IMG/VR virus record: IMGVR_UViG_641736163_000009
Origin: a virus
Lineage: Duplodnaviria; Heunggongvirae; Uroviricota; Caudoviricetes
DNA: 10,001 nt
Direction: 5' to 3' (one strand)
The number at the start of each line of letters is the position of its first letter. Within the stretch, counting starts at the first letter, position 1. Below are positions 6,001-9,000 of the stretch, in pieces. A program made the position numbers.

Positions 6001-9000
6001 ACATGCCGGGACCATCACCGTGTATGAGGATTCTCAACCCGGTACGCTGAATGATTTTCTCGGTGCCATGTCGGAGGATGATGCCCGTCCGGAGGCACTG
6101 CGACGTTTTGAACTGATGGTGGAAGAGGTGGCGCGTAACGCTGAGGAGGCGAAGAAGAATGCCGGAGAGGCGGAGACGTCAGCAAGGAATGCCGGCATAT
6201 CAGCCAGTCAGGCAGAAAAGAGCGCTGCACATGCTGACACTTCAGCAGGATATGCATCGGAGTCAGCCCGGCAGGCGGCAGAAAGTGCAGCCTCAGCAAA
6301 GCAGTCAGAGGAGGCGTCCTCGTCCTCGGCCTCTGAGGCCGCTCAAAAAGCCAGTGAGTCATCACAAAGTGCAGCAGAAGCTGAATTGTCAAGAAAGACG
6401 GCAGAAAGTGCAGCCGGTAATGCAGCCAGGGATGCAACGACCGCAGCAGAAAAAGCCCGGGAGTCAGCAGAAAGCGCACAGTCAGCGGAACAAAGCAGGA
6501 TAGCGGCGGAAGACGCCGTAAACCGAATCCCCACCGTGGTGGGACCTCCCGGGCCAAAGGGGGAACAGGGGCCCGCGGGTCCTCAGGGGCCGAAGGGTGA
6601 TAAGGGAGAGCGCGGTGACACCGGCCCTGTCGGGGCAACCGGCGAACGGGGACCGGCAGGTGATGCTGGTCCGGCAGGCCCGCAGGGGCCGAAAGGTGAC
6701 AGGGGAGAGCGGGGAGAGACCGGTCTGACGGGAAATGCAGGTCCACAGGGTCCAAAGGGAGATACCGGTGCGGCAGGCCCGGCAGGCCCACAGGGACCGA
6801 AAGGAGAAACAGGTGCGGCTGGCCCGGTGGGGGCAACCGGACCTCAGGGACCGAAGGGCGACCCGGGGGAGACACAAATCCGTTTTCGTCTGGGGCCGGC
6901 GAGCATTATTGAGACAAACAGCAATGGCTGGTTCCCGGATACAGATGGCGCACTCATCACCGGACTGACCTTTCTTGACCCCAAAGATGCCACACAGGTT
7001 CAGGGGCTGTTTCAGCATTTGCAGGTCAGGTTTGGTGACGGGCCGTGGCAGGATGTTAAGGGGCTGGATGAAGTGGGCAGTGATACAGGCAGAACAGGAG
7101 AATGACATGAATATACTAAAAAAACTTATGCAGCGTCTGTGTGGTTGCGGAAAGCATGATGGCCGTGAACACGTGCAGTCGCTTACAGCACAACTGCGTC
7201 TGGGGCCGGCAGACATCCTGGAGTCCGATGAGAATGGTATTATTCCGGAGCAGGACAGGGTAATCACGCAGGTGGTGATACTGGATGCAGATAAAAAGCA
7301 GATACAGTGCGTGGTAAGACCGCTGCAAATTCTGCGTGCTGACGGGACGTGGGAAAATATTGGCGAGATGAAATAGCCGACAGCTTCACAAAAACCGGAG
7401 TCCGGCTCCGGTTTTTTGTTGGTTAGATGTAATCTGACAGATACCTGTATAAATAACCGGTAACTGTCAGGTCAGAGCTAATACAGGTAATTATATTATA
7501 ATCACGAGCGCTTAGATGTATTAATGCCATGCTCTGCAAGATGCTGCACCAGACGCTGAGCCACATCAGGCAGAGGTCTTGATTGTTCATTTTGTACCGG
7601 CGGCGTTGGCGCAGGCCAGTTAGGTGCCGGAGGAATATGTTCAGCCATATTCCGGGCTGGTTGAATGCCATGCTCTGCAAGATGCTGCACCAGACGCTGA
7701 GCCACATCAGGCAGAGGTCTTGATTGTTCATTTTGTACCGGCGGCGTTGGCGCAGGCCAGTTAGGTGCCGGAGGAATATGTTCAGCCATATTCCGGGCTG
7801 GTTGAATGCCATGCTCTGCAAGATGCTGCACCAGACGCTGAGCCACATCAGGCAGAGGTCTTGATTGTTCATTTTGTACTGGCGGCGTTGGCGCAAGCCA
7901 GTTAGGTGCCGGAGGAATATGTTCAGCCATATTCCGGGCTGGTTGAATGCCATGCTCTGCAAGATGCTGCACCAGACGCTGAGCCACATCAGGCAGAGGT
8001 CTTGATTGTTCATTTTGTACCGGCGGCGTTGGCGCAGGCCAGTTAGGTGCCGGAGGAATATGTTCAGCCATATTCCGGGCTGGTTGAATGCCATGCTCTG
8101 CAAGATGCTGCACTAGGCGTTTGGCCACATCAGGTAGAGGCCGATGTAAAGCGTTTTTTTCTATACTTGACTGAGTATAAGATGTGGAACGTTGAAGTCC
8201 TGATTCCGTATAAGAATTTTTTACCTTAAAAATAGTTGTTGCACTGGCAGGACTGTTGCTGGGAGAAAGAGGTGAGCTGGTTTTTACCGTGTTAGGTGTG
8301 CTTTTGTGCTGTGAGGCAGTGAAGCTACTGTTACGCGTAACACTTGATATACTGCGAGGAATGCTGGAAAAAAAAGAATTAATGCTATTTATCATATAGA
8401 TAACCTTATAAGAACTTTATGTGATAGTCTAATTTATCCGTTTGCATGAAATCTACCTTTTGTGAAATTCTCGTCAATATTTTACTCAAAATGATCGGCT
8501 GTAGGAATAAACTATTTGATATTATTGCGTTTTTAGAGTTGTTTTCAATCAGCTATAGATAGGGCTTGGCGCCAGAATGGAGAATATTTAACGAGAAATA
8601 GAAGCTTTGTATCAGACGGGCTTCCCTGAATAGAGAAGTTAAATAATCAGGATGATGCTAATGAATATCAGGAACAAGGTGAGTGTCTTCATGTTCACTG
8701 AAACAGGGTGTCACAAAAAATATGGCTATAAGATGATCAGGTAATGACTCCAACTTATTGATAGTGTTTTATGTTCAGATAATGCCCGATGACTTTGTCA
8801 TGCAGCTCCACCGATTTTGAGAACGACAGCGACTTCCGTCCCAGCCGTGCCAGGTGCTGCCTCAGATTCAGGTTATGCCGCTCAATTCGCTGCGTATATC
8901 GCTTGCTGATTACGTGCAGCTTTCCCTTCAGGCGGGATTCATACAGCGGCCAGCCATCCGTCATCCATATCACCACGTCAAAGGGTGACAGCAGGCTCAT

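Follow-up and report, generated by a model that had tools for sequence, protein, structure and literature searches.

A published relative of the gene considered here is ORF68 of the Shiga toxin (Stx) 2 phage Sp5 (VT2-Sakai), an open reading frame (ORF) reported by Mondal et al. in 2016 to encode an 89-residue polypeptide with a phage fibre C-terminus domain and to lie among the non-essential late genes (PMC5155283). The same authors found no sequence able to drive an ORF67–ORF68 frameshift fusion and suggested that ORF68 may provide the fibre with an intragenomic reservoir of variants (PMC5155283). The domain in question, Phage_fiber_C (PfC, PF06820), is in the fibres an all-β, autonomous trimerization domain that re-nucleates the collagen helix and is trimeric by itself (PMC3368898). 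We analyzed a homologous small ORF in a 10,001-nt stretch of the virus record IMGVR_UViG_641736163_000009 (Caudoviricetes), referred to below as the window, where it occupies positions 7107–7376 of the + strand directly behind a collagen-like side tail fibre gene. This small ORF is a live conserved gene under purifying selection and its product is made; we propose, tentatively, that the product is a non-essential partner of the PfC tip of the fibre.

ORF68 of Sp5, L0122 of 933W and 'gp59' of phi24B belong to the same family as the small ORF of the window and share with it the length, the Pfam domain and the position right after a collagen-like fibre. The setting differs, since here the gene follows a fibre of EPclA type (437 residues) in a long-tailed lambdoid prophage with tccP2 and espV, whereas ORF68 follows an EPclB fibre (645 residues) in a short-tailed Stx2 phage. 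Compared with the PfC of EPclA (PMC3368898), the small ORF carries the same PF06820 domain but at only 37–39% identity; it has no collagen stalk, possesses a 27-residue N-terminal extension and ends without the 11-residue C-terminal tail of the fibre. The small gene and its resemblance to the fibre tip have been published since 2016 and are hence not new: the ORF is present in 296 phage records (the VT2-Sakai copy being 92% identical), its RefSeq/PGAP name, 'phage tail fiber C-terminal domain-containing protein', is routine annotation, and the exact 89-residue protein is recorded from Escherichia albertii. The same pair of collagen-like fibre and small ORF, followed by NleB/NleC/NleH-like effector genes, is found in the record of lambda h434 imm21, a classical laboratory hybrid (OM418627; L172, 2186–3770). 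This record labels the small ORF 'tail fiber assembly chaperone', a label with no experimental basis in the record; lambda h434 hybrids would make an easy experimental system.

Domain layout and relation to the fibre tip

The fibre gene stops with TGA at 7103–7105 and, after a single spacer nucleotide (C, 7106), the small ORF begins with ATG at 7107 on the same strand, in the following arrangement:

5792–7105, + strand: collagen-like side tail fibre of EPclA architecture, 437 residues (PF08400, PF01391, PF06820), composed of PfN (residues 1–133), a coiled coil, collagen (about 251–361), PfC (363–426) and an 11-residue tail
6878–7069, + strand: fibre PfC (Phage_fiber_C) domain, paralogue of the small-ORF domain (PF06820, 123 bits)
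6887–6900, + strand: first copy of the 14-nt identical stretch CGTCTGGGGCCGGC, encoding the conserved R-L-G-P-A
7096–7100, + strand: Shine-Dalgarno sequence AGGAG, read from the sequence, 6 nt before the small-ORF ATG and within the last fibre codons
7107–7376, + strand: small ORF, standalone PfC protein, 89 residues plus stop (PF06820, phrog_576)
7107–7187, + strand: N-terminal extension of 27 residues, with a predicted helix (residues 3–12) and then a Cys/His-rich linker of low confidence (LCGCGKHDGREH) in the AlphaFold2 (AF2) model
7118–7124, + strand: A7 run in small-ORF codons 4–6, a natural frameshift hot spot
7188–7373, + strand: PfC domain of the small ORF (residues 28–89), reaching the exact C-terminus (PF06820, E = 1e-34)
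7197–7210, + strand: second copy of the 14-nt stretch
7390–7416, + strand: terminator-like hairpin closing the late tail operon, a 12-bp stem followed by a T run

The coordinates and the AGGAG bear out the first-pass annotation of this DNA, which had described an 89-residue ORF starting 1 bp past the fibre stop with a good ribosome-binding site; the tight coupling of the two genes, which it had also stressed, is seen again in the junction GGAGAATGAcATG, identical in 77 of 83 related loci. Its central claim, that the small ORF is a diverged duplicate of the C-terminal domain of the fibre, is confirmed both by a common domain family and by direct alignment. A profile search places the two proteins in PF06820 over the full length of the model, with residues 28–89 of the small ORF covering model positions 1–64 of 64 (119 bits) and residues 363–426 of the fibre all 64 positions (123 bits), the gathering cut-off being 25 bits. 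Residues 29–85 of the small ORF align with fibre residues 364–422 in BLASTP (39% identity, 63% positives, E = 4e-12), and the Smith-Waterman alignment of the two proteins is significant against shuffled controls, with a score of 106 vs. 27 ± 4 for the shuffles (maximum 47, n = 2000; z = 19.9). Over its entire length (residues 1–89 on positions 1–89 of 89) the small ORF also matches phrog_576, a 'tail fiber protein' family (E = 3e-59).

Aligned by codons, the two PfC regions are 53% identical at the nucleotide level, second codon positions scoring highest. The 14-nt identity between them, already noticed in the first pass, is real, at 6887–6900 and 7197–7210. It is not a conserved feature and simply encodes R-L-G-P-A: the shared stretch reaches 14 nt in only 7 of 79 related loci and mostly measures 10–11 nt. 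Since no allele pair from these 79 loci shares more than 14 nt between the paralogues, there are no gene-conversion tracts; moreover, every uninterrupted fibre 3′ end among them is of the fibre type. A frameshift or stop within the fibre PfC was seen in the last 75 fibre codons of 4 of the 79 loci (L003–L083), the small ORF downstream being intact.

The N-terminal extension follows a pattern, M-x-I-[LF]-K-K ... L-x-G-C-x-K, that is common to the Salmonella orthologue described below. The A7 run within it could be prone to slippage or could simply be a place of frequent mutation; one allele (L157) has A6 at this site, and the Citrobacter rodentium copy (L169) is frameshifted there (GAAAAAC), with a restart at the equivalent of Met8.

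Gene integrity and selection

The small ORF is intact, at 89 residues, in all 84 loci retrieved through the small ORF itself. A second set, unbiased for the small ORF, consists of 80 loci retrieved through the fibre PfC, 77 of them with sufficient downstream sequence. An intact small ORF lies directly 3′ of the fibre in 72 of the 77 and behind an IS66 insertion in one more (73/77); the remaining copies carry 1-nt frameshifts (2/77) or are truncated through rearrangement (2/77). Frameshifted or truncated copies are those of L089, L129, L130, L157 and C. rodentium, and in the latter species the two genes have both decayed and are uninformative as to function. The ratio of non-synonymous to synonymous nucleotide diversity (πN/πS) across 56 distinct alleles is 0.12 for the small ORF as a whole, 0.10 for its PfC part and 0.25 for the N-terminal extension, compared with 0.26 in the 75 terminal fibre codons. 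At no locus examined does the small ORF form the end of a longer gene that has been disrupted.

An IS66-family element, containing three ORFs, sits exactly between the fibre stop and the small ORF (L036, 348–2963; also L059 and L124), so that translational coupling is broken and both genes stay intact. In a collection with one genome per species the sole match was a 725-bp contig, 92% identical, in an assembly of Xanthomonas pisi (NZ_JPLE01000138.1, L083), which is most probably assembly contamination.

Salmonella relatives and age of the duplication

The PfC family is very narrow, since only 83 relatives emerged when 1.84 billion representative proteins were searched with a profile. A standalone PfC protein of 79 residues (P0125) exists in Salmonella enterica, its relatives coming mostly from subsp. 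salamae. Its gene has an AGGAGG 7 nt before the ATG and overlaps the fibre gene by 14 nt. The upstream gene is non-collagen and yet PfC-ended, being either a 212-residue protein (L085, L086) or a Phage_fiber_2 fibre fused to J (L087). The small ORF and the fibre gene move together as a module in which the PfC tip is the only constant partner, and it is chiefly this constancy that argues for a free copy acting with, or upon, the PfC of the fibre.

The PfC identities are 62% between the small ORFs of E. coli and Salmonella, 40% between the fibres and 29–39% across the two types. By these values, the fibre-type and the standalone-type PfC separate cleanly into two old orthologous groups, so that the duplication predates the split of the phage lineages. 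Between E. coli and Salmonella the non-synonymous (dN) and synonymous (dS) divergences are 0.29 and 1.06 for the small ORF, and 0.56 with saturated dS for the fibre PfC; the standalone copy thus evolves more slowly, and under stronger constraint, than the fibre copy.

Several observations concern unusual arrangements of PfC. At L087 (4373–7228) the tip attachment protein J continues in frame into a Phage_fiber_2 repeat and then a PfC with an in-frame stop; this tail-fibre region seems to be decaying or rearranged. A collagen-like protein of 565 residues (P0144) carries 4–5 tandem PfC-like modules, e.g. VVVLDADAKTATGQMGILQVRRADGTWMEIPALKG, N-terminal to its collagen repeats, with PF06820 above threshold, which indicates that PfC-like modules can stack in one fibre chain. 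Two chimeras were also found. In P0066 (L084, 4–291) the collagen of the fibre is joined in frame to the PfC of the small ORF across a 10-nt microhomology (GGGCCGGCAG), a deletion allele at a contig edge with incomplete context; in P0121 the N-terminus of the small ORF is joined to a fibre-type PfC C-terminus, a rare form whose context is likewise incomplete.

Translation of the small ORF

The supplement of a cryo-electron microscopy preprint on phi24B reports, from purified virions, the peptides ADGTWENIGGMK and VITQVVILDADKK, both unique to the small protein, with 3 peptide-spectrum matches (PSMs) each, and 2267 PSMs for the fibre gp61 (10.64898/2026.04.10.717836). The search database of its authors included hypothetical fusions of the fibre with the small ORF, named 'Fusion_6159_FS1/FS2', and the entry label 'Spike or just gp59?' (10.64898/2026.04.10.717836). 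In the gel slice of lowest mass (EA1829), which also holds a 74-residue phage protein, the fusion entry has 1 PSM more than gp61, so that at least one small-ORF peptide comes from this slice. The part of the supplement that we covered contains no junction peptide (TGEND..., MNILK). We read these data as showing that the small protein is translated and free, at about 2% of the molar level of the fibre; it is not a stoichiometric component of the virion or of the tip. On the + strand between 5600 and 7600 no sigma-70-like promoter was found, and the terminator-like hairpin follows the small ORF; for these reasons the small ORF would be expressed late, together with the fibre.

Predicted fold and probable relation to the Mu fibre tip

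The AF2 model, computed from an alignment of 20 sequences, has a predicted local distance difference test (pLDDT) score of 74, an earlier one from 8 sequences (pLDDT 52) being too poor for use. In the model the N-terminal helix (residues 3–12) and a disordered Cys/His-rich linker precede a small all-β PfC with pLDDT values of 79–89. Foldseek against viral models retrieves phage tail fibres at a template modelling (TM) score of about 0.5, and in hhalign the PfC profile aligns, with weak statistics (E = 0.04 and 0.14), to the C-terminal ~60 residues of both Mu S and S′; the common pattern is R-L-G ... V-I-T ... R-P-x-Q ... G-T-W. Taken together, these comparisons, each of marginal score when considered alone, make it probable that PfC is related to the distal tip of Mu-type fibres (gpS/gp49, PDB 5YVQ; gpS′/gp52, PDB 8JU3), the part that contacts the host and, in the case of Mu, also the chaperone. 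The distal tip of the Mu tail fibre was the best match of the PfC model. Searched by sequence and by profile, the PDB yielded nothing beyond coiled-coil matches to optineurin and PKN1, which are spurious.

Possible roles of the standalone PfC protein

The role that we consider likeliest, with a confidence somewhat short of even, is that of a dispensable partner of the fibre PfC tip: a free PfC trimer, made late and co-translated with the fibre, that would serve as an assembly helper or a transient cap. According to this proposal, an old duplication of the fibre 3′ end would have given rise to the small ORF, which would since have stayed with PfC-ended fibre genes in a module of two genes and be translated together with the fibre by means of its own Shine-Dalgarno sequence and the 1-nt gap. 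The product would be a free-standing, probably trimeric copy of the distal PfC knob with a 27-residue N-terminal extension, and would meet the fibre PfC tip during or after its trimerization. It is non-stoichiometric in the virion and dispensable under laboratory conditions, and would fill the slot that Tfa holds beside Stf-type fibres. The data establish the homology, the integrity of the gene, purifying selection, the linkage to PfC fibres and translation, whereas the trimer, its contact with the fibre tip and the assembly or cap role are inferred. The Tfa-type proteins (lambda Tfa, Mu U/gp50, P2 G) are likewise encoded by a small late gene right after the fibre and co-inherited with the tip. 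On the other hand, Tfa and the fibre tip are not paralogous, and fibre trimerization depends on Tfa, whereas EPclA trimerizes alone and ORF68 is dispensable. With respect to Tfa itself (Caudo_TAP, PF02413), a Pfam scan of the small ORF at E ≤ 0.1 gives PF06820 only and an NCBIfam scan gives no match.

Several points weigh against such a partner. Deletion of ORF68 in Sp5 leaves plaque formation and lysogenization in place, whereas deletion of the fibre gene ORF67 abolishes both (PMC5155283), and recombinant EPclA as well as a Col-PfC fragment trimerize and refold without the small protein (PMC3368898). In the Pfam and NCBIfam scans the small ORF has no similarity to Tfa or to any chaperone family, and the estimates of selection are derived from closely related, recombining prophage copies. 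An essential Tfa-like chaperone conflicts with the ORF68 deletion and with the self-assembly of EPclA (PMC5155283, PMC3368898). The option of a trans-acting trimerization or chaperone module, raised in the first-pass annotation, still provides the best reading but is weakened, since the fibre trimerizes alone and the Sp5 gene is dispensable (PMC3368898, PMC5155283).

Next in likelihood, though rather unlikely, comes an independent binding role, in which a soluble PfC trimer freed at lysis, or a rare virion-bound adhesin, would bind a ligand on the host surface by itself and so might block receptors on debris or lysogens or confer an additional specificity. Small genes beside receptor-binding genes often encode exclusion proteins, e.g. 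Cor and Llp; the PfC fold is probably that of a distal fibre tip, in Mu the host-binding end, and the protein, made late, would be released at lysis and co-purifies in trace amounts with virions. However, no signal peptide is visible on inspection (residues 7–13 hold Q/R in E. coli and K/H in Salmonella), no PADLOC defence model matches the small ORF, and Sp5 showed no phenotype. Moreover, a standalone PfC that is only 29–39% identical to the neighbouring fibre PfC and slower-evolving is unlike a decoy tracking the same receptor. An exclusion lipoprotein of Cor/Llp type was rejected on inspection, as the lipobox-like L-C-G-C (L-F-G-C in Salmonella) has no hydrophobic core: the 6–7 residues preceding L-x-G-C include Q and R (E. 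coli) or K and H (Salmonella), and Cys14 is too near the N-terminus.

Two further proposals appear improbable. The first is that the standalone PfC is a trans-acting tip subunit that docks on the fibre PfC trimer, or mixes into it, and alters its binding or stability. The second is the recombination reservoir of Mondal et al. (2016), according to which the small ORF would be spare coding DNA able to replace the fibre tip and change host range, the protein itself being irrelevant. This idea has the merit of having been published (PMC5155283), and the short shared stretch at the RLGPA codons as well as the two natural chimeras, P0066 and P0121, fit it. However, a silent cassette needs neither an ATG, a Shine-Dalgarno sequence nor an intact frame, all of which are kept from E. 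coli to Salmonella, purifying selection on the non-PfC N-terminal extension would be left without explanation, and the peptides show translation. Exchange has left no mark either: no allele pair shares more than 14 nt, conversion tracts are absent, the uninterrupted fibre 3′ ends of the 79 loci are all fibre-type, the best 120 small-ORF relatives all have at most 131 residues, and the two PfC types are old separate lineages. As for the chimeras, they are rare, and P0066 is a deletion, i.e. a one-way event, at a contig edge. For the alternative tip left by cassette exchange, which the first-pass annotation had listed among its options, the missing conversion tracts and the two old orthologous groups leave no support. 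The arrangement also recalls the template repeat of a diversity-generating retroelement (the TR of BPP-1, whose variable repeat, VR, lies in mtd), where the 3′ end of a receptor-binding fibre gene is likewise duplicated just downstream, but here the second copy is a translated gene. Such an element was rejected because no reverse transcriptase is found among the window ORFs, the copies are 53% identical and the mismatches are spread over all bases rather than being adenine-specific.

A programmed frameshift fusion, by which a fraction of the ribosomes would shift to the +1 frame at the close of the fibre gene and yield a minor fibre carrying two PfC knobs in tandem, is less probable again. The small ORF does lie in the +1 frame of the fibre, open from 6975, and on paper tRNA-Glu could re-pair ahead of a weak UGA-C stop, e.g. 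by slipping −2 from GAA at G_GAG_AA_UGA_C, where a GAG overlaps this codon. The phi24B authors searched for fusion products, the trace abundance of the peptides would suit a rare fusion, and PfC-like modules stand in tandem within a single chain of P0144, a distant relative. Against this, no signal was found by Mondal et al. (PMC5155283), the downstream RNA has no stimulatory structure (z = −0.37), the part of the phi24B data that we covered holds no junction peptide, and at least one small-ORF PSM from the lowest-mass slice suits a free protein of ~10 kDa. Furthermore, the small-ORF frame of Salmonella has a stop two codons before the ATG, so that the open upstream frame is not conserved, whereas a strong Shine-Dalgarno sequence and ATG are kept in both lineages.

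Finally, a functionless, decaying fragment of a second fibre gene, a possibility also listed in the first pass and seemingly in line with the frequent degradation of such prophages, the frameshifted or truncated copies (L089, L129, L130, L157 and C. rodentium) and an N-terminal extension loosely alignable with the last collagen triplets of a fibre, is essentially excluded by an ORF intact in about 95–100% of loci and under purifying selection (πN/πS of 0.12), by the same standalone architecture in Salmonella (62% identity, own Shine-Dalgarno sequence and ATG), by the detected peptides and by synteny in related prophages, where the small ORF is never the tail of a longer disrupted gene.

Gene content of the window

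The window covers the tail-fibre end of a lambdoid prophage of attaching-and-effacing Escherichia. Its fibre matches in length and architecture the EPclA proteins of Table 2 of Ghosh et al. 2012 (PMC3368898). The other features are:

85–666, + strand: tail assembly protein I
854–1393, − strand: sodC moron between tail genes I and J, Cu/Zn superoxide dismutase (Sod_Cu, E = 4e-32)
1515–4973, + strand: tip attachment protein J
5041–5640, + strand: lom
7502–8395, − strand: tccP2 (TccP2/EspFu-type effector) with five 47-residue EspF repeats
8755–9452, − strand: insertion sequence IS1, between tccP2 and the espV-like gene
9618–10001, − strand: start of an espV-like gene

The sodC gene is a moron within the tail operon, on the strand opposite to the tail genes, and tccP2 is convergent to the small ORF.

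Implications

With respect to published work, the present analysis adds purifying selection on the small ORF, an old duplication, the linkage of the two genes as a module even in Salmonella, the trace detection of the protein by proteomics, the lack of any sign of use as a recombination reservoir, and a fold that probably links PfC to the tip of the Mu fibre. Known routes to a change of host range are DNA inversion, diversity-generating retroelements and unrelated chaperones; if the small protein were a trans-acting tip subunit, host range would be modulated by a free paralogue of the receptor-binding tip.

Collagen-like fibres with a PfC tip occur in most lambdoid and Stx prophages of enterohaemorrhagic E. 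coli, often with several per genome (10.64898/2026.04.10.717836). A conserved, co-translated copy of the tip probably belongs to the story of how these fibres recognize receptors and how the phages spread and, if the small protein modulates the assembly or the binding of the fibre, it would bear on how phages carrying Stx or effector genes find their hosts.

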